64,000 nt of DNA from a virus: the IMG/VR virus record IMGVR_UViG_3300029113_000198. One strand, 5' to 3'. Shown here one piece after another: positions 4,391-58,443 of this stretch (its first letter is position 1; each line of letters opens with the position of its first letter). The position numbers and the translations under genes are program-made. A model generated the notes under the pieces. That model was not told the DNA's origin. It was given only the letters and a program-made list of their open reading frames with translations, and did no database searches.

Positions 4391-4920
4391 TTAAGACCAC
4401 AAACCCATTAAAGAGAAGTGCATGGGCTGTGTTCTTGTACAGAGGCAGACAAGTTTATTCATATCTTTTGCGTAATAGCAATCTTGGCGACAAGGAGCGT
4501 ATGGTAGAACTGCTGGCACGAAGATACATGACAGAGCCTGAGAATATTGTTGTAGATATTGAATTTAGAGATTGAGGTGATAGAGAATGACCGCGTTTGT
4601 AATGTTTGCTTTTAATGTGGCACTGATAATAGCAGTGAATAATAGTCCGTTTGCATTTTAAGTGGAGGCATGAATATGAAAGAACTGGAAGAAATTTACA
4701 ATCGATTATATGATGAATACATTGACGCTAGACGAAAGCATTTTGAGTCTGCTCTCGATATGAAAAAGAATGGTGACAGAATATATCTACATGGTAAAGT
4801 GCATGGGTTAGAAATTGCCATTAACATCGTCGATGAAGTGCTCGAAAGGGTTAAGGCAGAATATATCAAGGAAGCTTTTGACGTAGACCCATATAAAACC
4901 TAAATTCTTTTGGAGGGAAA

Positions 4921-5185
4921 TATGAGATACACAAAGCGTGAAATTATTGGTGCATATCGGATTCTCACGAAGAATATTCAGCAGAATGATCTCGGTTGGC
5001 GTGGAAAAATGATTTTAAGTGATGTACTTGATGACTATTTCAGTCGGGTTGAGGGTGAAAAGGTTGTCGTAGATCAAAAGTATGGAAATTTTCGTTGTCC
5101 AAAATGCAATACGGTAATTACGAGTAGGTATGATCACTATTGCAGAGATTGTGGTCAGAAGTTTGATTGGAGAGAAACAAGATGA
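4921..5185 (+). CDS. Zinc-ribbon protein
   Basis: CPKCN...CRDCG; ATG at 4921 after GGAGGG RBS. Confidence 0.35.
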
Positions 5186-5702: not shown

Positions 5703-5942
5703 ATGGCCGAAATGGATAATTTGAAACCATGTCCGTTCTGTGGTGGAGAAGTTGCCATTGACGAAACAGGGACTGATACAAAGAAGTGGATGTTTATTTC
5801 GAGAGCGCACGGAGAAAACAAATGCACTTGCCGTGTTTTTATGGAAAGTGGGGAGTATTGGTTTGATTGCTCCGAAAAGGATAAAGAAAGAATTAAAGCC
5901 GACCTTATTGAAGCATGGAATAAACGAATTTATAAAAGTTAA
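5703..5942 (+). CDS. lar: Lar-family restriction-alleviation-like protein
   Basis: N-terminus LKPCPFCGGE followed by a second Cys pair (CTC...C), the characteristic start of Lar-family small zinc proteins. Confidence 0.45.
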   Translation: MAEMDNLKPCPFCGGEVAIDETGTDTKKWMFISRAHGENKCTCRVFMESGEYWFDCSEKDKERIKADLIEAWNKRIYKS

Positions 5943-6632: not shown

Positions 6633-7385
6633 ATGACAAGAAATGAATTGCTTGGAGCGTTATGCTTTCCAGAATATAATTTTCTTCGGGAGAATGAGCA
6701 TCTTGGCAAACACATGATGTTTGTGACGGTCGGTGGCAGTCATGCTTACGGGACAAATGTTGAGGGCTCAGATCTTGACATCCGAGGTGTAGCATTGAAT
6801 TCAAAAGAAGACCTTCTTGGTCTCGGTGAGTTTGAGCATTATGTGGACACTCAGACCGATACAACGATTTATAGCTTTAACAAAGCTGTGAAATTGATGT
6901 GCAGTGGAAATCCCAATATGCTGGAACAGTTAGGGAATGCCGATGAACTCGTTATTAGCTATAACCCAATGACGCAGCTACTTATGGACAACAAAAACCT
7001 ATTCCTTTCAAAGCGTGTGATTTACTCGTTTGGAGGTTTTGCAGGCAAGCTGATTCAGAAGTCTGATATATTAGACAAAGATCCAATCTACCATAATTCA
7101 AAGAAAATGCACAAGACGGTAATGAATGCAGTTCGTGTATACCTGATGCTCTTTGACATCTTGGAAAAAGGTGAAATTAAAACCTATCGAGACAACGATC
7201 ATAACCTCCTGACGCAGCTTCGCAACGGTGAATATGATTACAAAGCGATTCGTCAGCAACTGATTCCGGCCTATGAAAGCAGATTGTCAGTTGACAAGAG
7301 TGAGACTTACCTGTCGGACAATGTTGATTGGAAGCTGGTCAACGAGCTTGTGATGACTGTAAATGAGGAGTCTTTAAAGATTTGA
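6633..7385 (+). CDS. Pol-beta superfamily nucleotidyltransferase (PF10127 / RlaP / YcgL-like)
   Basis: VGGSHAYGTNVEGSDLDIRGV = hG[GS]...[DE]h[DE]h NTase motif in the GSxxYG...SDxDxRGV form typical of the ~250 aa predicted-nucleotidyltransferase family. Confidence 0.55.
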   Translation: MTRNELLGALCFPEYNFLRENEHLGKHMMFVTVGGSHAYGTNVEGSDLDIRGVALNSKEDLLGLGEFEHYVDTQTDTTIYSFNKAVKLMCSGNPNMLEQLGNADELVISYNPMTQLLMDNKNLFLSKRVIYSFGGFAGKLIQKSDILDKDPIYHNSKKMHKTVMNAVRVYLMLFDILEKGEIKTYRDNDHNLLTQLRNGEYDYKAIRQQLIPAYESRLSVDKSETYLSDNVDWKLVNELVMTVNEESLKI

Positions 7386-7410: not shown

Positions 7411-8037
7411 GTGATTTTTATTAACTCCAATTTGTTAATAAATCGTAAGCAAAGTGTTGCTATTGTGTGTATAATGTGCCTGTTGGCAGGGAATCTGGTA
7501 TCGAAGATCAGCCCGGTGATTCAAAATCAGAGTAATTCGTACCTTTATAATAGTAGTCCTCCGGCAGTGAGTGTTGTGCAACAAGAGGAAAAGGAGTCAG
7601 AAGTCATTGTAGAGACTGTTGTTGAGACGCGGATTGTGAACTTCAGTCAGGGGAAGCGCGAGCTTACCGATGACGAGCGTGCTCTTGCGGAGCAGATTGT
7701 TGCTTGTGAAGCAGGTGCTGATAGCCTAGAAGGTCAGATGGCTGTGGCTCAATGCCTTTATGATTCCGCTGTGCTTGATGGTCTAACCATCCAGCAGGTA
7801 TTTAAGAAGTATGGTTATAGTTCCTTATATAATAGGAAGGTGACGGCAGAGAACGAACTGGCTGTGTCTATGGTGTTTGATTACGGTGCTAAGATTTCAG
7901 ACAAACCTATTCAATGGTTTGTGACCCCGGCGGCAGCTCCCGGCAGTTGGCACGAGCGCGGAGCAACATTTGCTGGACAATTTGGCGCACACAGGTTTTA
8001 TTATGACGCGAAGCTGGTTGTGGATGATGCTGAGTAA
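7411..8037 (+). CDS. SleB-like cell-wall hydrolase (Hydrolase_2 domain) with N-terminal TM/signal segment
   Basis: N-terminal hydrophobic segment; LAEQIVACEAGADSLEGQMAVAQCLYDSA and QWFVTPAA...HERGATFAGQFG...FYYD match the SleB/cell-wall-hydrolase fold signature. Confidence 0.6.
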   Translation: MIFINSNLLINRKQSVAIVCIMCLLAGNLVSKISPVIQNQSNSYLYNSSPPAVSVVQQEEKESEVIVETVVETRIVNFSQGKRELTDDERALAEQIVACEAGADSLEGQMAVAQCLYDSAVLDGLTIQQVFKKYGYSSLYNRKVTAENELAVSMVFDYGAKISDKPIQWFVTPAAAPGSWHERGATFAGQFGAHRFYYDAKLVVDDAE

Positions 8038-8160
8038 ATGGCATCATCTAAAATTTCGATAAACAATACAACAAAAAGATGTTTAATATATTGACGAAAA
8101 CAAAAAGATGTGTATAATATATCTTGAAAGTTGTTTATGTGAGCGGAAGGCGGTATTTCA

Positions 8161-8487
8161 ATGAGTGAGAAAAAGGTTTTGGAAATTATACAGGTTGAAA
8201 ACTTTTTGAAGTACATAAGAAAAAAGCGAGTGTGGGTTTGCTTTATTTGCAATGGTGTGGATGTTCACATGATCTGCAAGAAGATGGATGACATTGGTGT
8301 AGAGACACATGGGGTTGTCAAAGGCATTGGATTTTTTGGAAACGAAAGTCATGTTGAGTTGCGGCAAGAATGCTATGAAGTAAGGAAGATAGAACTTAGG
8401 CCGGGCGATAAAGAGAAAGCGTATGAGATGATCTTCGATAACACCAGTGTGTTCGTGTCGGAAAATCCTGAGTTGTACGGGCACTAA
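8161..8487 (+). CDS. Hypothetical protein (candidate partner of the downstream MazF)
   Basis: 108 aa ORF. Preceded by an AT-rich region carrying two tandem ~30-bp repeats (caaaaagatgtttaatatat / caaaaagatgtgtataatatat), each containing a -10-like box. Confidence 0.4.
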   Translation: MSEKKVLEIIQVENFLKYIRKKRVWVCFICNGVDVHMICKKMDDIGVETHGVVKGIGFFGNESHVELRQECYEVRKIELRPGDKEKAYEMIFDNTSVFVSENPELYGH

Positions 8488-8506
8488 AAATATTTTCAAA
8501 AACCTC

Positions 8507-8535
8507 TTGACTTATATGGTTGTATCCTGTATAAT
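8507..8535 (+). promoter_or_regulatory. Consensus sigma-A type promoter TTGACT-17-TGTATAAT driving the mazF-like gene; contains inverted copy of the conserved phage motif
   Basis: TTGACT 8507-8512, 17-bp spacer, TATAAT 8530-8535 preceded by TG; motif GTATCCTGTATAATATAGCTAT at 8522-8543. Confidence 0.7.
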
Positions 8536-8578
8536 ATAGCTATGGAACGGAGCTACACTATTATAGAGGAGAAAGATT

Positions 8579-8998
8579 ATGGACAACAATATTGACCCAA
8601 AGGTCGGAGAGGTTTGGTTGGTCGATTTGTCAAATGCGACAGGTCATCAGCAGCGCGGTATTCGACCGTTCGTTGTGACGAGCAACAATAAGCGCAACTT
8701 CTTTAGCCCCACAATCAAAGGGAATCCATTGTCTTCCAGAATATACAAGCGTTCTCCGGTTCATGTTCTACTTTCAAAGGAAGACTGTAATTTCTTAGAG
8801 GTTGACAGTATCGTTCTTTGTGAAGAGACTGACACGCTTAACAAAGGACAGTTCATCAAAAAACTTGGTGTCTTGTCGGAACGTCAGATGAATATGATTG
8901 CAATGGCAAGATGTAAGGATGAACCGTTTTTGCTCGCAGCATTCCTGAGCGGCGTACAACATACTATGGAATTTCAGAATTTTGCCGCATTTGCTTGA
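8579..8998 (+). CDS. mazF: MazF/PemK/EndoA-family endoribonuclease toxin
   Basis: VGEVWLVDLSNATGHQQRGIRPFVVTSNNKRNFFSPTI aligns with B. subtilis EndoA ([29 protein letters not shown]...RFSPT); downstream HV..L and QMNMI blocks also conserved. Confidence 0.8.
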   Translation: MDNNIDPKVGEVWLVDLSNATGHQQRGIRPFVVTSNNKRNFFSPTIKGNPLSSRIYKRSPVHVLLSKEDCNFLEVDSIVLCEETDTLNKGQFIKKLGVLSERQMNMIAMARCKDEPFLLAAFLSGVQHTMEFQNFAAFA

Positions 8999-9051
8999 TT
9001 TTTTATAATGTTTAATGGTACACTACATATAATAAGAAGGAGTGTGCCACT

Positions 9052-9978
9052 ATGCTTACTGAAGAAAAAATCAACGCTTTTGCCGAAAGGTATTCTGATA
9101 AAAGCGGTAAGTTTGTTGTATCGACACTTAACAATGTTATGATCTATGAGGCCGAGTGTGGGTATGAGTTGTTTGATTTTACAAAAAATGATTTTGTAAA
9201 GATGTTTGCAAAATACAATTGGGTGAACTCAAGTCGTTCATTTAGAAATGTGAAATCAATAATCACTGGCTACATCAAAAGTGAAGATCGTACAAGTTTG
9301 TATGACTTGGCTGAATTTTCGGAAAATGACGTAAGTTCAGACGATATGTATGCAGACAAGTATTTTGCATCGGTTGATGAATTTGTTGACTTATTAAATA
9401 AATACGAAGAGCCATATCAGATTCGTATGAACGTGATTGCTGTATTATACTGGATTGGACTTACCGCTGGTGAAATTGTTAATCTAACAATCAATGATGT
9501 TGATTTTGAATCTCGTACTGTTCTCAATAGGACTGGTATTGATGCGAGGTTGATGGATATCATCAAGCAGTGTTATGAAATGAAACAATATGATGCTCCC
9601 AACATGGGAGGATACAGAACGTTTTATGTCATAAACGGTGATTACATCCTTCGCAAAACAGAGGACAGGACTGGAGCAGACAGTGACCCAAAGATATCTA
9701 CAAATACAATTCATACCTATTTTATGCGATTGAATGATATTCTCGAAAAAAGAGGTTGTTCTAAGATTTTGGACCAAAGACATTTAACAAGAAACAACGA
9801 GTATATCAAGGTTTATGACTATTGCAAAACTCATCCAGAATTTAATCTTGTAGAACTTAGCTTCGGAAATGGTAAAGATCCTCTTGCAGACATTATCGGA
9901 AGAAAGTGTAGCAAGGTAGCCTATATTAGCTTCCGGCAAGGATACAAGGGCTGGATTGAGTATTTCCATAAAAATTAA
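9052..9978 (+). CDS. Hypothetical protein with degenerate tyrosine-recombinase-like box (no catalytic Arg)
   Basis: IAVLYWIGLTAGEIVNLTINDVDFESRTV resembles the integrase Arg-box region but Arg is replaced by Thr; no clean HxxR/Y. 308 aa. Confidence 0.35.
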   Translation: MLTEEKINAFAERYSDKSGKFVVSTLNNVMIYEAECGYELFDFTKNDFVKMFAKYNWVNSSRSFRNVKSIITGYIKSEDRTSLYDLAEFSENDVSSDDMYADKYFASVDEFVDLLNKYEEPYQIRMNVIAVLYWIGLTAGEIVNLTINDVDFESRTVLNRTGIDARLMDIIKQCYEMKQYDAPNMGGYRTFYVINGDYILRKTEDRTGADSDPKISTNTIHTYFMRLNDILEKRGCSKILDQRHLTRNNEYIKVYDYCKTHPEFNLVELSFGNGKDPLADIIGRKCSKVAYISFRQGYKGWIEYFHKN

Positions 9979-9982
9979 AAAC

Positions 9983-10006
9983 AGGGGGCTTCGGCCCCTT
10001 GATTTT
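9983..10006 (+). terminator. Rho-independent terminator
   Basis: AGGGGGC-ttcg-GCCCCT hairpin followed by TGATTTT. Confidence 0.7.
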
Positions 10007-10013
10007 AACACGT

Positions 10014-10034
10014 TAGCTATATAATACAGGATAC
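10014..10034 (+). promoter_or_regulatory. Conserved phage motif copy b (TAGCTATATAATACAGGATAC)
   Basis: Directly after terminator and 30 bp upstream of the 10064 start; shares extended upstream context TTTTAAC(A)CGTTAGCTA with copy d. Confidence 0.6.
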
Positions 10035-10063
10035 AGAAAATAGTATTTGAATGGAGAATAACA

Positions 10064-12136
10064 ATGTCTGATTTCAAGAAATTTCGTGCACTGCTGCAGG
10101 ATCACTTCAATGAGATGGTGAAGGTCGAGAATCCACTGTTTATCACCGATGCAGACGAGGATGAATTGTACAATCTGTACCTCGATAGCTTTCCGGCTGG
10201 CACGAATGAGCTGTTCCGTAAGCGTCGTGAGTATGACTGTTCCTGCTGCCGCCGTTTTGTAAAGAATATCGGCAAGCTGGTGGCGTTTGATGCGGGTCAT
10301 AATCTGGTTTCTATTTGGGATTTCGATGCTAAGTCCGCTAAGTATCAGCCAGTTGTGGACGCTCTGGCTGCCTATGTGAAAAGTCGCGCCATTGCGAATC
10401 CGTATTTTGTTAGCCGCAATATGATCGGTTCTGGCAATATGTTCGGCACCGAGATGAACTACGAGTATGATGAAAACCACAAGGATGTGCATACTTGGGA
10501 TCATTTCGCAGTCAAGATTCCGCAACGTTTCATTACAAGTGGAGATGACGTGGCTACCAAGATGGCTCAATGGCGTGATTCCGCAAACGTGTTCAAGCGT
10601 TCTCTGGAAGAGTTGACTATGGAAGCTGTTGATACCGTTCTGGAACTAATTGTGCAGAACAGTCTGTATCGTGGTAAGGAGTTCGAAAGAGCCGTCAAGG
10701 TATTTAAGATTCACAAGATTGAATACAACAATACTCCGGCTGAGAATAAGGATGCTTATGTTTGGTTGGCTCCTGCGTGGGGCGATATGGGGCAGTTGCG
10801 TATCCGTAATACCGCTATCGGTACTCTGCTGGTGAATCTGAGTGAGGGCATGGATGTTGATGCAGCCGTTACTGCATTCGAAAAAGTTGTTGCTCCTGCA
10901 AATTATAAGCGCCCCAAGGCGATTTTCACCAAGAAGATGCTGGAAGATGCACAGAAAACTGTCACCGAGCTGGGTTACATGAACAGTCTGGGTCGCCGGT
11001 TTGCTACTCTGGACGATATCACCGCCAATAATATCCTGTTTTGTAATCGTGATGCTGCTCCTCGTATTGTTGGTGCTACAAATCCGTTTGAGGCAATGGC
11101 TAAGACTGTTGCGATTGATCCTAAGAAGTTTGGCCGCGCAGAAGAAATTGGCATCGATAAGTTTATCAAAGACGTGTTGCCGACTGCGACTGGGCTGGAG
11201 CTGTTCGTGGAGAATCGTTTCGAGAAGAATATGATGTCTCTGATTGCTCCGCAGGATAAGACTGCGCCGAGCATGTTCAAGTGGCCGAATGGTTTCAGCT
11301 GGGCATATACCGGTAATGTGACCGACAGTCAGATCCGCGAGAACGTCAAGAACGCTGGCGGTAAAGTTGATGGCGTGCTGCGTTTCTCTATTCAGTGGAA
11401 CGATAAGTCGAGCGAGTGGGATGAAAACGATGAGGATGCTCATTGCATTGAACCTGATAAGAATCATATCTATTATGGCGATAAGTGGAATCCTCGTACT
11501 GATGGCCGCCTAGATGTTGATATCCGTTGTCCTAATCAGGGTAAAGCTGCGGTCGAGAATATCACCTGGCCTGACATCAAAAAGATGAAGGAAGGCGAGT
11601 ACAGCTTCTATGTAAACTGCTACGCTAATCGTGGTGGTAAAACTGGTTTCCGTGCTGAAATCGAATTTGATGGCAACATCTACTCGTTTAACTATGATAA
11701 GCCGCTGCATCAGGGTCAGAATGTCGCCGTGGCAAAAGTCACGCTGAAGGATGGCAAATTCTCTATCAAGGAGTTGCTGCCCAGTTCTACTAGAACCCGT
11801 GAGATCTGGGGTGTAAATTCCAATCAGTTCGTGCCTGTGTCTGTGGTGATGTACTCTCCGAACTACTGGGATGAACAGACTGGTAATGGCAACCGTCACT
11901 ACTTCTTCATGCTCAAGGATTGTGTCAACCCTGAAAAGCCCAATGGTTTCTACAACGAATTTCTGAAGGTGGAACTGCTACAGCATAAGCGTGTGTTTGA
12001 GGCACTTGGTTCTCAGATGGCAGTTCAGTCGGTAGATGACCAGCTGTCCGGCGTTGGCTTCTCTGAGACGAAGCATGATTCCTTTATTGTCAAGGTTCAG
12101 GGCGCTACTGAGAGAGTTCTGAAAGTGGTTATCTAA
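10064..12136 (+). CDS. Large hypothetical phage protein (690 aa)
   Basis: Strong RBS, follows motif copy b. No confident family assignment; an internal KVDGVLR resembles ligase motif I but lacks the other ligase motifs. Confidence 0.5.
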   Translation: MSDFKKFRALLQDHFNEMVKVENPLFITDADEDELYNLYLDSFPAGTNELFRKRREYDCSCCRRFVKNIGKLVAFDAGHNLVSIWDFDAKSAKYQPVVDALAAYVKSRAIANPYFVSRNMIGSGNMFGTEMNYEYDENHKDVHTWDHFAVKIPQRFITSGDDVATKMAQWRDSANVFKRSLEELTMEAVDTVLELIVQNSLYRGKEFERAVKVFKIHKIEYNNTPAENKDAYVWLAPAWGDMGQLRIRNTAIGTLLVNLSEGMDVDAAVTAFEKVVAPANYKRPKAIFTKKMLEDAQKTVTELGYMNSLGRRFATLDDITANNILFCNRDAAPRIVGATNPFEAMAKTVAIDPKKFGRAEEIGIDKFIKDVLPTATGLELFVENRFEKNMMSLIAPQDKTAPSMFKWPNGFSWAYTGNVTDSQIRENVKNAGGKVDGVLRFSIQWNDKSSEWDENDEDAHCIEPDKNHIYYGDKWNPRTDGRLDVDIRCPNQGKAAVENITWPDIKKMKEGEYSFYVNCYANRGGKTGFRAEIEFDGNIYSFNYDKPLHQGQNVAVAKVTLKDGKFSIKELLPSSTRTREIWGVNSNQFVPVSVVMYSPNYWDEQTGNGNRHYFFMLKDCVNPEKPNGFYNEFLKVELLQHKRVFEALGSQMAVQSVDDQLSGVGFSETKHDSFIVKVQGATERVLKVVI

Positions 12137-12150
12137 AAGGAGAAATTATT

Positions 12151-12534
12151 ATGGAAAAGAATCTGTTTGAAATCGCAACTCGTAATCGTTACCGTTTTAC
12201 CTACAAGGGCGTCATGACTGTTGAGGATCTGTGGGATCTGAGTGTCGAGGCATTGGATGCGATTTTTAAGACTCTGAACCGTCAGAAGAAAACTGCAGAC
12301 GAAGATTCTTTGCTGGCTGTTAAGAGCGCCGAGGATACTGAACTGGCAAACAAGATCGAGCTGGTCAAGTACATCGTATCTGTCAAGCTGGCTGAATCTG
12401 AGGCTCGTGTGAATGCTGCCGAAAAGAAGGCGCAGCGCGATAAGATCATGAAGATTGTGGCAAAGAAGAAGGACAAGGAACTTGAAGATATGGATGTTGA
12501 CCAGCTGATGAAGAAGCTGGAAGAGTTGAGTTAA
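12151..12534 (+). CDS. Hypothetical charged/coiled-coil protein
   Basis: 127 aa, AGGAG RBS, KE-rich C-terminus. Confidence 0.4.
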   Translation: MEKNLFEIATRNRYRFTYKGVMTVEDLWDLSVEALDAIFKTLNRQKKTADEDSLLAVKSAEDTELANKIELVKYIVSVKLAESEARVNAAEKKAQRDKIMKIVAKKKDKELEDMDVDQLMKKLEELS

Positions 12535-12597: not shown

Positions 12598-12727
12598 CGA
12601 AAACGCCCTGCGTGGGGCTGACAGCCGGGAAAGACCGGCGATATATGCCAAGGTGCTGCAAATGGGAGACAGGGCGAGCCCAAACCTCGCTGTGGAAACA
12701 CATGCGGTTTCGAATACCGTCCTTGGC
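12598..12727 (+). ncRNA. Candidate structured RNA element (GC-rich, nested and pseudoknot-like helices) upstream of the HNH gene
   Basis: ~130 nt at ~58% GC inside a 40% GC phage. Mutually complementary segments: CGAAAACGC(12598-12606)/GCGGTTTCG(12704-12712), GCCGG-gaaaga-CCGGC (12624-12639), GCCAAGG(12647-53)/CCTTGGC(12721-27), GCGAG-cccaaac-CTCGC (12674-90). No plausible ORF. Confidence 0.3.
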
Positions 12728-12759
12728 ACCAGATAATTTTATGAAGAAAGGATGATTGC

Positions 12760-13443
12760 ATGGTTAATAGGGCAGAAGATCATATTGGTGATGTCTTTGA
12801 TTTGTTTGAGGTGATTGATGTTATTCGAGATGAAAATAATATTCCATCTTACAAATGTCGATGTAAAGAATGTGGATGGACAGGGCTAAAAAATATAGCT
12901 CAGGCGAGAGCGGTTAAAGTGTGTCGGCATAAACAATCGAGTGGCGATTATAGAAATTTTTCTACACGGTGGAAAAACAAAAGAATCGGACGAATCTTTC
13001 ATGGAATGAAAGCAAGATGCTATGATGTTGATGATAAAAACTATATAACGTATGGCATGAAAGGAATTTGTGTTTATCAAGAATGGTTGGATAATCCAAA
13101 GTCATTTGAAGAGTGGTCGTTGAAAAATGGATACAAAGATAGTTTGACAATCGATAGAATTGATTCGACAAAAGATTACTGTCCTGATAATTGCAGATGG
13201 ATATCATTGGAAGATAATTCAAAATATAAATCCACAACTCGAATGTTAGAAGTAGATGGTGAAATACATACGGGACGTGATTGGGCGGCAGAATTAGGGC
13301 TTGGAACAAACACGATAAATAAATATGTAAGAAGATACGGAGAAGATAATACAAAACAATTTATAAGAAGAGTATTAAAGGACCCGGATAAAGTGAATTC
13401 TCGACAAGGGAAACAAACTATCTATAATCTTTACATGAACTAA
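12760..13443 (+). CDS. HNH homing endonuclease (free-standing, phage type)
   Basis: GMKARCYDVDDKNYITYGMKGICVYQEWLDNPKSFEEWSLKNGYKDSLTIDRIDSTKDYCPDNCRWISLEDNS is the classic HNH_3 block; Cys-rich N-terminus. Confidence 0.8.
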   Translation: MVNRAEDHIGDVFDLFEVIDVIRDENNIPSYKCRCKECGWTGLKNIAQARAVKVCRHKQSSGDYRNFSTRWKNKRIGRIFHGMKARCYDVDDKNYITYGMKGICVYQEWLDNPKSFEEWSLKNGYKDSLTIDRIDSTKDYCPDNCRWISLEDNSKYKSTTRMLEVDGEIHTGRDWAAELGLGTNTINKYVRRYGEDNTKQFIRRVLKDPDKVNSRQGKQTIYNLYMN

Positions 13444-13450
13444 ATTGAAA

Positions 13451-13490
13451 TGGCCCAGTGTAAAAACTGAGTACATTGGGCCAAATATTT
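13451..13490 (+). terminator. Rho-independent terminator after HNH gene
   Basis: TGGCCCAGTGTA-aaaactgag-TACATTGGGCCA (12-bp stem, one G-U) followed by AATATTTAT. Confidence 0.65.
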
Positions 13491-13496
13491 ATATGA

Positions 13497-13580
13497 GCAC
13501 CCGTGGTGAAATTGGCAACCACGATGGACTTAAAATCCATTCCCGGTAACGGGTTGCGAGTCCGAGTCTCGCCGGGTGCA
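13497..13580 (+). tRNA. tRNA-Leu (anticodon UAA), type II
   Basis: Manual cloverleaf: acceptor GCACCCG/CGGGTGC, anticodon arm ATGGA-CTTAAAA-TCCAT, variable arm CCCG-GTAA-CGGG, T arm GCGAG-TCCGAGT-CTCGC, discriminator A. Confidence 0.7.
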
Positions 13581-13585
13581 TATTT

Positions 13586-13661
13586 CTGGGCGTAGCGAAG
13601 TTGGCATCGCACCTGTTTTGGGAACAGGGGACCGCAAGTTCAAATCTTGTCGCTCAGACCA
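13586..13661 (+). tRNA. tRNA-Pro (anticodon UGG) with encoded CCA
   Basis: Acceptor CTGGGCG/CGCTCAG (C1:G72 as in bacterial tRNA-Pro), D arm GCGA-AGTTGGCA-TCGC, anticodon arm CCTGT-TTTGGGA-ACAGG, T loop TTCAAAT, then A-CCA. Confidence 0.7.
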
Positions 13662-13664
13662 CTA

Positions 13665-13751
13665 CGAGGATTCGCCAAGTTGGTAAGGCAGCGGAATTTG
13701 ACTCCGCCAGCGCTGAACAAGCGGTCACAGGTTCGAGTCCTGTATCCTCGG
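13665..13751 (+). tRNA. Unusual type-II tRNA: Ser-like body (long variable arm, G discriminator) with anticodon UUG
   Basis: Acceptor CGAGGAT/ATCCTCG perfect; D stem GCC/GGC (3 bp); anticodon arm GCGGA-ATTTGAC-TCCGC; 19-nt variable arm CAGCGCTGAACAAGCGGTC; T arm ACAGG-TTCGAGT-CCTGT; discriminator G. Confidence 0.5.
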
Positions 13752-13758
13752 CTTATAT

Positions 13759-13843
13759 GCGGGTATGGTGTAACTGGCAGCCACGTCAGATTTAGGATCT
13801 GATGCCGAAAGGCGTGAGGGATCGTGCCCCTCTACCCGTACCA
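13759..13843 (+). tRNA. tRNA-Leu (anticodon UAG), type II, with encoded CCA
   Basis: Acceptor GCGGGTA/TACCCGT (G1-U72), anticodon arm TCAGA-TTTAGGA-TCTGA, variable arm GCC-gaaa-GGC, T arm GAGGG-ATCGTGC-CCCTC (atypical T loop), A-CCA. Confidence 0.55.
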
Positions 13844-13942
13844 CGGTCATAGAATGGTTGCGTACCGTTTGTTGATCTCCTTTACTATTATTCCCAGCTC
13901 GCCAGTGATGGTGCAGTAGTGCTTTGTAAGCTGGGTGATTGT

Positions 13943-14018
13943 GCAGCTATGGTGTTAGTGGTTAGCACATCTGCCTTCCAAGCAGAGAGGGCGGGTTCGA
14001 GTCCCGTTGGTTGCTCCA
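13943..14018 (+). tRNA. tRNA-Gly (anticodon UCC) with encoded CCA
   Basis: Acceptor GCAGCTA/TGGTTGC (two G-U pairs), anticodon arm TCTGC-CTTCCAA-GCAGA, T arm GCGGG-TTCGAGT-CCCGT, T-CCA. Confidence 0.6.
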
Positions 14019-14207
14019 ATCTCGTATGGGTAGGATTTTTAGCGGTCAAATCCGGCTGCGCCTGTGCGAGATACCACCCCGAAAGGGGCGAGATATAGGA
14101 AATGTGCATCACTGTTATTCCTTCCTCGTCTATATGATATAGATGCAATAGTGTTTTATAAGGAAGGTGCCCAGTTGAATAGTTGCAGCTGTTTAACTGG
14201 TTTTTAT

Positions 14208-14284
14208 GGGATAGTAGCTCAGTTGGTCAGAGCTGGCGACTCATAACCGCTTGGTCGCGAGTTCAAATCTTGCCTGTCCCACCA
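14208..14284 (+). tRNA. tRNA with CAU anticodon (Met, or Ile2/lysidine type), encoded CCA
   Basis: GGGATAGTAGCTCAGTTGGTCAGAGC...GGCGACTCATAACCGCTTGGTCGCGAGTTCAAATCTTGCCTGTCCCACCA; anticodon-to-T-arm segment closely resembles E. coli ileX (GGCGACTCATAATCGCTTGGTCGC). Confidence 0.7.
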
Positions 14285-15079: not shown

Positions 15080-15100
15080 TAGCTATATAACACAGGATAC
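15080..15100 (+). promoter_or_regulatory. Conserved phage motif copy c (TAGCTATATAACACAGGATAC)
   Basis: Immediately upstream of AAAAGGAGG RBS and the GTG 15118 start of the methyltransferase gene. Confidence 0.6.
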
Positions 15101-15117
15101 GAAAAGGAGGTGGTTTG

Positions 15118-20501: not shown

Positions 20502-21717
20502 ATGGATAATACAGTTCATGACGCTCAAAGATTGAAGGAGCTTCAGGCACTCCCTCTTGAGCGAAAGATTCAAATCACTCAAAATCGCATCCAGGAATGG
20601 TATATGCACTATGATGGTGGTGTGTACGTCAGCTTCTCCGGCGGTAAGGATTCTACTGTACTTGCTCATTTGACAAAGCAGCTGTTCCCAGATGTCCCGC
20701 TTGTGTTTAGTAATACAGGCTTGGAATACTCGTCAATCCAGAAATTTGCACGAAACGCAGATGCTGTTTTTGTTTATCCCAAGATGGGATTTAGTGATGT
20801 GGTCTCTACATATGGTTATCCTCTTATCTCTAAAGAAGTGGCTGAAGCGATTTACTACGCTAGACGAATCAGAAATAGCGGCGCAGCCACCATGAGAGAG
20901 AGAGAGAGTAAGAACAACTCTCAGGAAAAGACAAGAACTTCTGGGTTTAAGGACGAACTGTCTGGGAGGTGTCTTTAGCAACCCGTGGCTTTACGATGAA
21001 ACAGGAGTTTTTCAAGGAAACAGACGGACGATTCTACTTGGTAATGAACCGGGAGCTGAAATGAAGGCCGGAACAAAATCCATGTTCAATAAGGAAAAAT
21101 GGTTGCCAGCAGCACAAGAACTTCCGTTTGCAATTTCTCATTACTGCTGTTCAGTTATGAAAAAAGGTCCGATGAAGAAATATGCAAGGGCAACCAAGCG
21201 TAAACCTATTATTGGAACGTTGACTGATGAAAGTCGTGTTCGCAAGCAAGCTTGGATTCGACATGGGTGTAATGCTTTTGATAGCAAGTCTCCAACAAGT
21301 CAGCCTATGAGTTTTTGGACTGAGCAGAACGTGCTCACTTTCATCAAACAGTCAGAAATTCAAATTGCAGATGTCTATGGCGATATTGTTCCTACGAGTG
21401 ATAAGCCGGATGCGCCATTGTGTTGTACTGGGTGTGATCGTACCGGATGCACGTTTTGTGGATTTGGAGCTCACAACAAGAACGATAATAGATTCCTGAC
21501 ACTTGCCGAACTTGACCCAAAGAAGTACGAGTATAGTATGAACGGCGGTCAATGGGTAGACAATCCAAAATATGATGCTACTGCACCTGAGTATGACGGA
21601 GTTTGGAAGAACTGGAACCCGAAGAAAATTTGGGTGCCCAGCAAAGAAGGTCTTGGACTGAGAAAAGTTTTCGATATGTTCAATGAACTGTACCCAAACA
21701 ACAAAATTCAATATTAA
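20502..21717 (+). pseudogene. PAPS-reductase-family (PP-loop, DUF3440-type) protein split by a frameshift inside a (GA)n tract
   Basis: N-part (20502-20978) has the SFSGGKDSTV PP-loop. The next frame is open from 20896 and runs into the 21061-21717 ORF, which carries a Cys cluster CCTGCDRTGCTFCG. The two frames switch at GAGAGAGAGAGAGAG (20894-20908). Confidence 0.55.
20894..20908 (+). repeat. (GA)7.5 dinucleotide microsatellite inside coding sequence
   Basis: Direct reading: catGAGAGAGAGAGAGAGta. Confidence 0.9.
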
Positions 21718-33257: not shown

Positions 33258-33282
33258 CAATTATGTGAGTATCCTGTATAAT
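33254..33282 (+). promoter_or_regulatory. Perfect consensus promoter TTGACA-17-TATAAT containing inverted motif copy e
   Basis: TTGACA 33254-59, TATAAT 33277-82, spacer 17 bp; GTATCCTGTATAATATAGTTAT 33269-33290. Confidence 0.7.
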
Positions 33283-33327
33283 ATAGTTATAAAAAGTCTC
33301 CATCCCGGAGGCTTAAAATTCTCTCTT

Positions 33328-33348
33328 TAACTATATAATACAGGATAC
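33328..33348 (+). promoter_or_regulatory. Conserved phage motif copy f (AACTATATAATACAGGATAC)
   Basis: Between promoter e and a hairpin+T-run at 33352-33392. Confidence 0.55.
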
Positions 33349-33351
33349 GGG

Positions 33352-33392: not shown

Positions 33393-33417
33393 GCTATAAC
33401 TATATAACACAGGATAC
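33391..33417 (+). promoter_or_regulatory. Conserved phage motif copy g (TAGCTATAACTATATAACACAGGATAC)
   Basis: Immediately upstream of AAGGAGG RBS and ligase start 33431. Confidence 0.55.
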
Positions 33418-33430
33418 GCAAGGAGGCTTT

Positions 33431-54125: not shown

Positions 54126-54480
54126 GGTATGACATAATATAACAGAATATGAACTAGACGAGCGTGCAATAAATAGCAGTAGAAAAGCAAGAAGAGGAAA
54201 AATAACGAATTATCGTTATGAATACAAAAGCGAACAATAACTCAAGCAAAAATATGTGCAAAGTGTAAAAATTACAAAAAAATTACAATACCCTATTGCA
54301 AAACGGTTTCAAAAGAGTTACAATATGGTTACAGCAAGGGCAAAGCCCCAAGGCTGTGTGTGAAATCTTTTTCTTCTTGTTTTTGGGATACTGGGCGCGG
54401 ATCCTCCTCCTCCGGCTGTTCTCCTTCACAGCTATGATCCATGCGCCGCACAGGCAGTGTCCCGCTTCGTGTGCAAAAGG

Positions 54481-54510
54481 GCTCGTCCGGTGATTCGGAC
54501 GAGCTTTTTT
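54481..54510. terminator. Strong hairpin + T-run (bidirectional-type terminator)
   Basis: aaaagGGCTCGTCCG-gtgatt-CGGACGAGCtttttt. Confidence 0.65.
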
Positions 54511-58359: not shown

Positions 58360-58443
58360 GCCGCTGTGGTGAAATTGGCAGACACGAGGGACTTAAAATC
58401 CCTTTCTGGAGACAGAGTACGGGTTCGACCCCCGTCGGCGGCA
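58360..58443 (+). tRNA. Chromosomal tRNA-Leu (anticodon UAA), type II; probable integration target of the downstream element
   Basis: Acceptor GCCGCTG/CGGCGGC, anticodon arm AGGGA-CTTAAAA-TCCCT, variable arm TCTG-gaga-CAGA, T arm ACGGG-TTCGACC-CCCGT, discriminator A. Confidence 0.7.

Follow-up and report, generated by a model that had tools for sequence, protein, structure and literature searches.

In a 64,000-nucleotide stretch of the viral record IMGVR_UViG_3300029113_000198 (the whole of it hereafter called the window), part of a very common human-gut phage of approximately 125-140 kb, the gene for a MazF/EndoA-type endoribonuclease and the gene that follows it form a conserved two-gene cassette under one terminator. 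By profile comparison, the product of the second gene is homologous to SroF/MrpR, the master repressor known from SPbeta-like phages, and is not merely a degenerate integrase. The reading we favour, to which we give an even chance, is that the product of mazF is an active, sequence-specific nuclease that would serve as one arm of an SPbeta-like control of lysis-lysogeny or early expression, rather than as the toxin of a classical toxin-antitoxin pair. A preliminary description of this DNA, made from the letters and their open reading frames (ORFs), had presented mazF as an orphan toxin that the phage may use as a weapon, neutralised by some unconventional partner, and its downstream neighbour as integrase-like; the coordinates and lengths it gave for the three ORFs concerned are confirmed here:

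8161-8487, plus strand: gene for a 108-amino-acid protein directly 5' of mazF, from a small, phage-restricted and fast-evolving family
8579-8998, plus strand: mazF, coding for a 139-amino-acid MazF/EndoA-type endoribonuclease (Pfam, PHROG, alignment and structure model)
9052-9978, plus strand: gene for a 308-amino-acid SroF/MrpR (YopR) homologue (profile comparison and Pfam), with Thr138 in place of the first catalytic Arg
9983-9999, plus strand: intrinsic terminator-like hairpin that ends the two-gene cassette

The assignment of the 139-residue product to the MazF family, made with confidence in the preliminary description, is borne out by its matches to the PemK/MazF family PF02452 (E 8.5e-20, 71.4 bits over residues 8-109, the cut-off being 23.1) and to phrog_1936, 'MazF-like growth inhibitor' (E 2e-22), and by an FSPT block at residues 42-45. 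Its nearest solved relatives are Staphylococcus aureus MazF and Bacillus subtilis EndoA, to which it is 30-36% identical (34-36% for the S. aureus protein), and its AlphaFold2 monomer model (predicted local distance difference test, pLDDT, 84.7) has the SH3-like barrel of the MazF/CcdB fold, with Foldseek template-modelling scores (target) of 0.82-0.85 to the S. aureus and B. subtilis enzymes at a probability of 1.00. The catalytic site is not degenerate: Arg29 never varies, and each of the 22 aligned family members has Ser or Thr at position 52; these two positions align with what we take to be R25 and T48 of the B. subtilis enzyme. Judged by these residues, we are confident that the gene encodes a catalytically intact MazF.

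The mazF gene is also strongly constrained. Across 54 relatives the ratio of non-synonymous to synonymous substitution rates (dN/dS) is 0.022 for mazF, 0.11 for the gene upstream and 0.10 for the gene downstream, and nearly all MazF proteins of the family fall in one 90% cluster of the protein database (812 members), the 108-residue protein being spread over more than 50. The first 80 loci were chosen by MazF identity, which inflates MazF conservation among them, but the cluster counts, which are independent of the sampling of loci, and dN/dS both agree with it. Synonymous divergence (dS) in mazF is about half that of the flanking genes (0.29 versus 0.56 and 0.71), and positions 8948-9050, comprising the last 50 nt of mazF and the spacer behind it, are nearly invariant as DNA among relatives; together, these suggest either that constraints at the nucleotide level overlap here or that there have been recent sweeps by recombination.

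The identity of the downstream gene product emerges most clearly from its family. A profile built on nine sequences, drawn from seven lineages, matches SroF of phage phi3T (9rd5/9rgl, the former being SroF bound to its operator) at E 8.4e-10, residues 8-291 aligning with 13-289, and YopR/MrpR of SPbeta (8bj6/8a0a) at E 3e-4, while true recombinases score only above E 0.28 (XerA 0.36), so that the full-length homology to SroF/MrpR exceeds that to tyrosine recombinases. The Pfam domain MrpR_N_CB is matched by seven of the nine members (best E 4e-8) and MrpR_C_cat by one; relatives match MrpR_C_cat as well. SroF/MrpR has been described as a non-catalytic, integrase-fold master repressor of SPbeta-like phages. 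The mutated Arg box noted in the preliminary description is real, the first catalytic Arg being replaced by Thr (GLTAGE rather than GLRxSE; T, G or S in other lineages) with Y298 near the C-terminus, possibly the counterpart of the catalytic Tyr, invariant, but the integrase label attached to it does not do justice to the protein. A search of the protein database from the repressor side returned only 2 matches, the repressor alignment is highly divergent, and tblastn of the 308-residue protein against isolated phages gave no match.

The preliminary description had proposed to look for a conserved gene pair in related phages. The mazF-repressor pair is present in 7/8 divergent lineages, so mazF is not free-standing even if it lacks a recognisable antitoxin. 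A small gene followed by mazF and then a SroF-like gene is the arrangement in lineages L084, L087/L113, L096, L176, L177, L178 and L089, where MazF is 60-93% identical to that of the window and the repressors only 21-28%. Individual loci depart from this arrangement: L029 keeps mazF and the repressor gene and has lost the gene for the 108-residue protein, the repressor gene of L008 is split, and L107 has an insertion of approximately 450 nt with a 68-codon ORF between mazF and the repressor gene (L107 positions 4418-4943). The ORF is possibly the remnant of a mobile-element gene, and the insertion is a natural break of the adjacency.

Neither is the absence of an antitoxin gene unusual in itself for a phage mazF. 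There are 76 INPHARED records matching the 139-residue protein, and in the three inspected neither an antitoxin nor a repressor is annotated beside the mazF-like gene; mazF/pemK has been listed among the accessory genes of staphylococcal phages. Phage mazF genes without an annotated antitoxin are thus common, and the orphan status emphasised in the preliminary description is by itself unremarkable.

The control sequences of the cassette are as follows:

8507-8535, plus strand: mazF promoter TTGACT-17-TATAAT (-35 at 8507-8512, -10 at 8530-8535; 11/12 matches)
8521-8542, plus strand: first copy of a 22-nt element, over the -10 of the mazF promoter
10014-10035, minus strand: second copy, inverted, close behind the repressor gene's terminator
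15080-15101, minus strand: third copy, directly 5' of a DNA methylase gene's ribosome-binding site
33268-33289 (plus strand), 33328-33349 (minus strand) and 33397-33418 (minus strand): three copies in the 173-nt gap before the DNA ligase gene
8982-9024, plus strand: candidate promoters of the repressor gene in nearly invariant DNA, TTGCCG-16-TATAAT (8982-9009) or TTGATT-18-TACACT (8995-9024)

The 91 bp upstream of mazF hold a promoter and no gene-like ORF of at least 20 codons, as had been described, and the near-consensus hexamers also stand, with a TG that abuts the -10 hexamer directly and so does not make a canonical TGn extended -10. What does not stand is the notion of a free-running promoter, since its -10 lies inside a recurring 22-nt element (consensus nGTATCCTGTRTWATATAGYTA), a copy of which is kept there in 71/71 relatives. 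Five copies are found in the window at three or fewer mismatches, against 0 expected, and a shorter core pattern reveals the sixth; every copy is intergenic, and both orientations occur. The plus-strand copy before the ligase gene likewise carries promoter hexamers (TTGACA-17-TATAAT), but no -35 accompanies the copies in minus orientation, whichever strand is read, so the element is more than a promoter. The first two copies are inverted, 95% complementary, 1.47 kb apart and bracket the mazF-repressor pair, the other four lying ahead of early genes. Both are present in those 71 relatives whichever gene comes next, and the second marks a module boundary, as homology with many relatives breaks there. 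Two divergent lineages have repeats of their own at the same two places: those of L084 are an inverted pair of 15 nt, and those of L087/L113 a direct family of 25 nt. Of the two candidate repressor promoters, TTGATT-18-TACACT, which was read from the sequence, fits the extended -10-like pattern TGnTAYNCT of 6/7 lineages.

Long, dispersed boxes of this kind are familiar from the SPbeta group. MrpR has been reported to bind its element, SPBRE, at approximately 10 promoters, its own operon's and a toxin gene's (spbT) among them, and a monomer of SroF reads a non-palindromic box of 24-26 bp at dispersed sites (Phi3TRE). The 22-nt element is likewise long, non-palindromic, used in either orientation and located in several intergenic promoter regions, including that of the repressor cassette; it differs from SPBRE and Phi3TRE in sequence and in that two copies bracket the cassette in inverted orientation, and here binding by the SroF-like protein is putative. 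By analogy, we infer that this protein would bind the 22-nt boxes and thereby hold mazF silent or low in the lysogen.

A second recurrent sequence concerns the nuclease. U^ACAUA has been established as the strict site of the MazF enzymes of B. subtilis, Listeria and S. aureus, and this narrow specificity has been argued to make MazF regulatory rather than lethal. The relevant sites in the cassette are:

9024-9029, plus strand: UACAUA in the spacer between mazF and the repressor gene, in 84/84 loci of the window's lineage and all 7 lineages with the mazF-repressor pair
8212-8217, plus strand: UACAUA in the ORF of the 108-residue protein, as the Tyr-Ile codons TAC-ATA, kept in 82/82 relatives
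9017-9048, plus strand: predicted RNA hairpin with 5' arm GGUACACU (9017-9024) and 3' arm AGUGUGCC (9041-9048)

When all 4096 hexamers were scanned in five lineages, TACATA alone occurred in every upstream gene and in every mazF-repressor spacer while being absent from every mazF and repressor ORF. Three lineages were then added as a prospective test, with which TACATA is found in 7/7 spacers (the next best hexamer in 5/7) and is absent from 8/8 mazF ORFs and 7/7 repressor ORFs. Among the closer relatives, neither ORF has the site in any of the 83 that could be scored, and the spacer site is kept in all 84 loci, even in a variant with a 2-nt deletion that destroys an overlapping TATAAT look-alike. 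Across the window as a whole UACAUA is found 32 times in sense and 16 times in antisense orientation; seven of the sites are no more than 30 nt upstream of a start codon, the highest number among 60 hexamers of identical composition (mean 1.05). The phage enzyme may, on the strength of these patterns, share the U^ACAUA specificity. If it does, both the mazF mRNA and the repressor coding sequence would be immune to it, as neither contains the site.

The position of the spacer site is also structurally conserved. The AGUGUGCC arm of the predicted hairpin overlaps the end of the Shine-Dalgarno sequence of the repressor gene (9036-9042), with UACAUA at the 5' edge of the loop, and in the minimum free energy folds of 7/7 lineages the segment 5' of UACAUA pairs with the repressor gene's Shine-Dalgarno sequence or start region, even though the arms themselves differ by lineage (for example GGUAUUCU/AGAAUGCC in L178 and UCCUUAC/GUAAGGA in L084). 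In most lineages UACAUA directly follows the -10-like TGnTAYNCT and may therefore mark the start region of the repressor promoter, in which case only RNA reading through from the mazF promoter would carry both the site and the 5' arm.

These features can be combined into the control circuit that we favour, in which the SroF-like protein on the 22-nt boxes would keep mazF off or low in the lysogen. Upon infection or induction, the box-bearing promoter would fire and yield a single mazF-repressor transcript, and MazF would cut U^ACAUA in phage leaders as well as in the spacer of its own transcript. The spacer cut would remove the 5' arm paired with the ribosome-binding region of the repressor gene, favouring repressor synthesis and uncoupling it from that of the toxin, and would separate a MazF-immune repressor mRNA, still carrying the terminator, from the part that encodes mazF. 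The repressor would then build up and close the 22-nt boxes. Neutralisation of the nuclease would come from transcriptional control and narrow specificity, possibly aided by the small upstream protein. The stronger version of this proposal, a self-contained lysis-lysogeny switch operated by RNA cleavage, in which MazF would cut lytic-gene leaders and free a stable and translatable repressor mRNA, with the fast-evolving upstream protein as a tunable inhibitor or as a target, is more speculative, and we would put it forward only tentatively; if true, this would be the first phage known to have internalised the MazF arm that arbitrium phages borrow from their host.

Several observations weigh against this interpretation. 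The SroF-like protein is only a remote homologue of SroF, and taken alone the 308-residue sequence scores 20.6 bits against MrpR_N_CB, under the cut-off of 27. L088 has the small upstream gene and mazF followed by a methylase gene, with no repressor gene, and in L096 no repeat resembling the 22-nt element was found; another protein could bind that element. The hairpin is modest in several lineages when compared with shuffled sequences (z of -2.6 in the window, -0.1 to -4.8 across lineages). The conserved UACAUA could instead serve the MazF of the host, or could be a promoter feature. The idea that the mRNA of the upstream gene is always a MazF target fails, as UACAUA is present in that gene in 0/3 of the added lineages and in 5/8 overall. 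Counting the UACAU pentamer per gene, following a published analysis of phi3T, revealed neither depletion nor enrichment, a test of low power.

The first alternative is that the small upstream protein is a new kind of antitoxin which blocks MazF in the service of prophage maintenance or of abortive-infection defence. We consider this unlikely. In its favour, a small gene lies approximately 70-140 nt 5' of mazF in 8/8 lineages, even in L088 without its repressor gene, and these genes belong to at least two families without detectable relationship; such swapping of partners is typical of antitoxins. They evolve much faster than the toxin, and no terminator separates the gene for the 108-residue protein from mazF. 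Its promoter, TTGACG-16-TATAAT at 8091-8118, is repeat-bearing as the preliminary description had it, in the manner of autoregulated toxin-antitoxin operons:

8070-8120, plus strand: two direct 22-nt repeats (AACAAAAAGATGTKTAWWATAT) at the promoter of the gene for the 108-residue protein

One of these repeats ends at the -35 and the other overlaps the -10; they are found nowhere else in the window and are conserved in relatives. Residues 44-67 of the protein are highly conserved yet not placed by AlphaFold2, as would fit a segment that folds upon binding. Against an antitoxin, the predicted fold is weakly HemS/ChuX/YojF-like and neither MazE, AbrB or ribbon-helix-helix nor any other known antitoxin fold, and the strong promoter that mazF has of its own uncouples the stoichiometry of toxin and upstream protein. 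In addition, L029 keeps mazF and the repressor gene in the absence of the upstream gene, and in L089 a MazF 93% identical to that of the window is accompanied by an upstream protein only approximately 40% identical. PADLOC defence models gave zero matches.

The search for a conventional antitoxin was unproductive. Pfam, PHROGs, NCBIfam, PADLOC and PDB contain nothing that matches the sequence of the 108-residue protein significantly, and only three full-length 50%-identity clusters of its family exist among 1.84 billion proteins. Gene-like ORFs of at least 20 codons are lacking in both the 91-bp and the 53-bp spacers, none of the 55 small ORFs of the window has an antitoxin Pfam domain, and a phmmer search of the window for MazE look-alikes yielded nothing below E 5 (the B. 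subtilis and S. aureus queries being approximate). No MazE, AbrB or ribbon-helix-helix antitoxin is thus recognisable beside mazF or anywhere in the 64-kb window, and the locus lacks the adjacent, co-transcribed antitoxin of known fold by which type II mazEF systems are defined. Neutralisation, if needed at all, must therefore be unconventional, as the preliminary description had supposed. Of the neutralisers it named, the 108-residue protein is a possible candidate for a non-canonical MazF partner or inhibitor. An RNA antitoxin fares worse: an Rfam scan of 7800-10300 returned no match at E up to 1, hence no known RNA family or RNA antitoxin, and folds of either strand around both spacers at 120-130 nt are no better than those of shuffled sequences, so that RNA enters only in the form of cis-acting features.

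The weapon proposed in the preliminary description is retained as a second alternative, about as improbable in our judgement as the new antitoxin. Here early MazF would degrade the RNA of the host or of competing phages in the lytic cycle, once infection or induction has occurred, a doomed cell would need no antitoxin, and the adjacency of the repressor gene would be incidental. The mazF promoter does share its element with promoters of replication genes, so that mazF would be expressed along with early lytic genes, and solo MazF-like genes are widespread in phages, the three inspected having no annotated repressor. A nearby RlaP-family gene (in most relatives a Pnkp-RNA ligase fusion) and seven tRNA genes could protect phage translation. 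There is also a precedent for a toxin-fold RNase in the timing of phage mRNA: RegB of phage T4 is a sequence-specific RNase without antitoxin that cuts ribosome-binding regions and times gene expression. RegB differs from the phage MazF described here in its RelE/YoeB-like fold, in coming from a virulent phage and in having no link to a repressor. What a weapon leaves unexplained is the adjacency itself, the shared terminator, the spacer UACAUA and the hairpin, all retained in 7 lineages whose repressors are 21-28% identical, as well as the enrichment of UACAUA in the sense strand and the leaders of the phage itself. As the 308-residue neighbour is a SroF/MrpR homologue by its profile matches, the likeliest role of mazF shifts from a weapon towards control of lysis-lysogeny or early expression.

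It is a good deal less probable that the enzyme restrains itself, its C-terminal extension folding over the RNA-binding groove until freed by proteolysis or by a partner. This extension of approximately 25 residues (about 115-139, pattern AR..DEPFL..AFL..F..F) is conserved in 22/22 members, with D114, E115, P116, L118, F122 and F132 invariant, and is modelled as two helices past the canonical last helix. MazE, AimX and YosL have been shown to bind MazF through a short C-terminal region. The tail has no sequence similarity to that of MazE, however, and its placement comes from a monomer model in which its pLDDT is 73-80.

Finally, an invertible cassette, in which the inverted, 95% complementary 22-nt repeats flanking the gene for a recombinase-fold protein would be recombination sites used by that protein to flip the segment as a phase switch, is hardly credible and was rejected, as the segment is oriented alike with respect to both flanks in 71/71 full-length relatives, the element recurs at four other places in the window, and the 308-residue protein, in which the first catalytic Arg is missing, falls with the non-catalytic SroF/MrpR proteins.

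Returning to the control circuit we favour, its closest known counterparts include systems of Bacillota and of Bacillus phages. With the mazEF/ndoAI-ndoA (EndoA) systems of Bacillota the phage locus shares the toxin fold, the catalytic residues and the FSPT block, at 30-36% identity. It differs from them in that the 64-kb window has no recognisable MazE gene (of the ribbon-helix-helix or AbrB kind), and in that mazF is phage-borne, has its own promoter, encodes the C-terminal extension and is followed by a repressor gene. In phi3T, the MazF of the host has been shown to determine whether lysis or lysogeny follows, promoting the latter, and reportedly spares the sroF operon; how it promotes lysogeny is described as still uncharacterised in the work on phi3T and SPbeta. 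SroA and SroB (YopM, phi3T_93), encoded in the repressor operon of these Bacillus phages, free host MazF by binding MazE. Compared with this circuit (sroABCDEF, host MazEF, AimX/YosL), the phage examined here is similarly a temperate phage of approximately 130 kb with a repressor of the same integrase-fold type and dispersed long boxes, and MazF is tied to the repressor operon in both. The nuclease is, however, encoded within the cassette rather than borrowed from the host, the repressor is only remotely related, the host is of a gut Clostridia type rather than Bacillus, and no AimX, YosL, MazE look-alike or arbitrium genes were recognised in the window. As for AimR, AimP and AimX, none was seen among the window proteins scanned (64 of the approximately 135 kb of the phage), and no search was aimed at them. 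The solo genes of PHROG 1936 and the staphylococcal mazF/pemK genes are likewise phage-borne without an annotated antitoxin; the present mazF differs in its C-terminal extension and fixed synteny, those genes being uncharacterised and the three inspected having no annotated repressor.

MazF itself, phage mazF genes without annotated antitoxin, SroF/MrpR with dispersed boxes and the involvement of MazF in lysis-lysogeny are all already known. What appears to be new is a phage mazF fixed in a box-bearing repressor cassette, with the Bacillota cleavage site conserved in a predicted hairpin ahead of the repressor gene, a combination undescribed in the literature searched, where phage- or prophage-encoded MazF was not found under those names. 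Widespread large temperate gut phages appear to carry a MazF of their own within the repressor cassette, with a predicted cleavage site at a conserved and structurally meaningful spot before the repressor gene, which extends repressors of the SroF/MrpR type with dispersed boxes from Bacillus phages to those of the gut. The circuit proposed above would make the link between MazF and lysogeny directly testable, and transcriptional control with narrow specificity is a possible general reason why phage mazF genes do without antitoxins.

The phage is evidently temperate, as shown by its presence embedded in contigs of 0.2-0.65 Mb, the longest reaching 580-650 kb, together with genes for a true tyrosine integrase (1942-2769; PF00589, E 1e-15) and, among the 55 small ORFs of the window, a Tn916-Xis-type excisionase (E 1.4e-23). 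It is also abundant, MazF variants of the family being found on hundreds of public contigs and one variant alone on 718, and it also occurs in assemblies of isolates such as IMG 650377940. Isolated phages give only short DNA matches (Ruminococcus phages and uncultured gut phage records), none of them close, and the few similarities to named phages are all to Ruminococcus phages. All genes in the part of the window containing the cassette are on the plus strand, and the surroundings are those of an early or replication region, with DNA polymerase, helicase-exonuclease, ligase, thymidylate synthase and NrdD genes. The window has an AAA_24 ATPase gene, and relatives have a gene of the SPbeta-family YorF at the matching place. 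A Lar-type restriction-alleviation protein is encoded at 5703-5942.

The gene following the cassette is an alternative module. In the window it is a gene at 10064-12136 for a 690-residue protein (phrog_1735), whereas most relatives have at this place a fusion protein of 737-754 residues comprising a polynucleotide kinase (AAA_33), a phosphatase (Metallophos) and a T4-type RNA ligase 1:

L008 6465-8678 and L090-L095 11476-13689: alternative RNA-repair module in relatives

Homology stops at the 22-nt element (10034) and returns near 12520. This fusion is a complete heal-and-seal enzyme for RNA, which could repair the 2',3'-cyclic-phosphate and 5'-OH ends left by cuts of the MazF type. A second gene associated with RNA repair lies close to the nuclease, two genes 5' of the cassette at 6633-7385, coding for a nucleotidyltransferase of the RlaP family (E 2.5e-18), labelled 'RNA repair pathway DNA polymerase beta family'. 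The uncultured gut phage MT835544.1 (35 kb) shares the gene for the 690-residue protein at 87% DNA identity and also has a different MazF homologue (31% identity) elsewhere, so that mazF recurs in this setting at more than one position.

The seven tRNA genes (Leu-CAA, Leu-UAA, Pro, Gln, Leu-UAG, Gly and Met) form a cluster at 12647-14284, 3-5 kb 3' of the cassette, and an additional tRNA-Leu gene is located at 58360-58443; in L087 and L096 a tRNA gene seems, by eye, to come right after the repressor gene. Further away, the Rfam IMPDH RNA motif (RF02994) is matched over its full length in an intergenic gap at 54380-54487 (117.5 bits, the gathering score being 95.4), and the adjacent ORFs at 20502-20978 and 21061-21717 correspond to the N- and C-terminal parts of the PAPS-reductase domain, apparently a split gene that is possibly interrupted or frameshifted.

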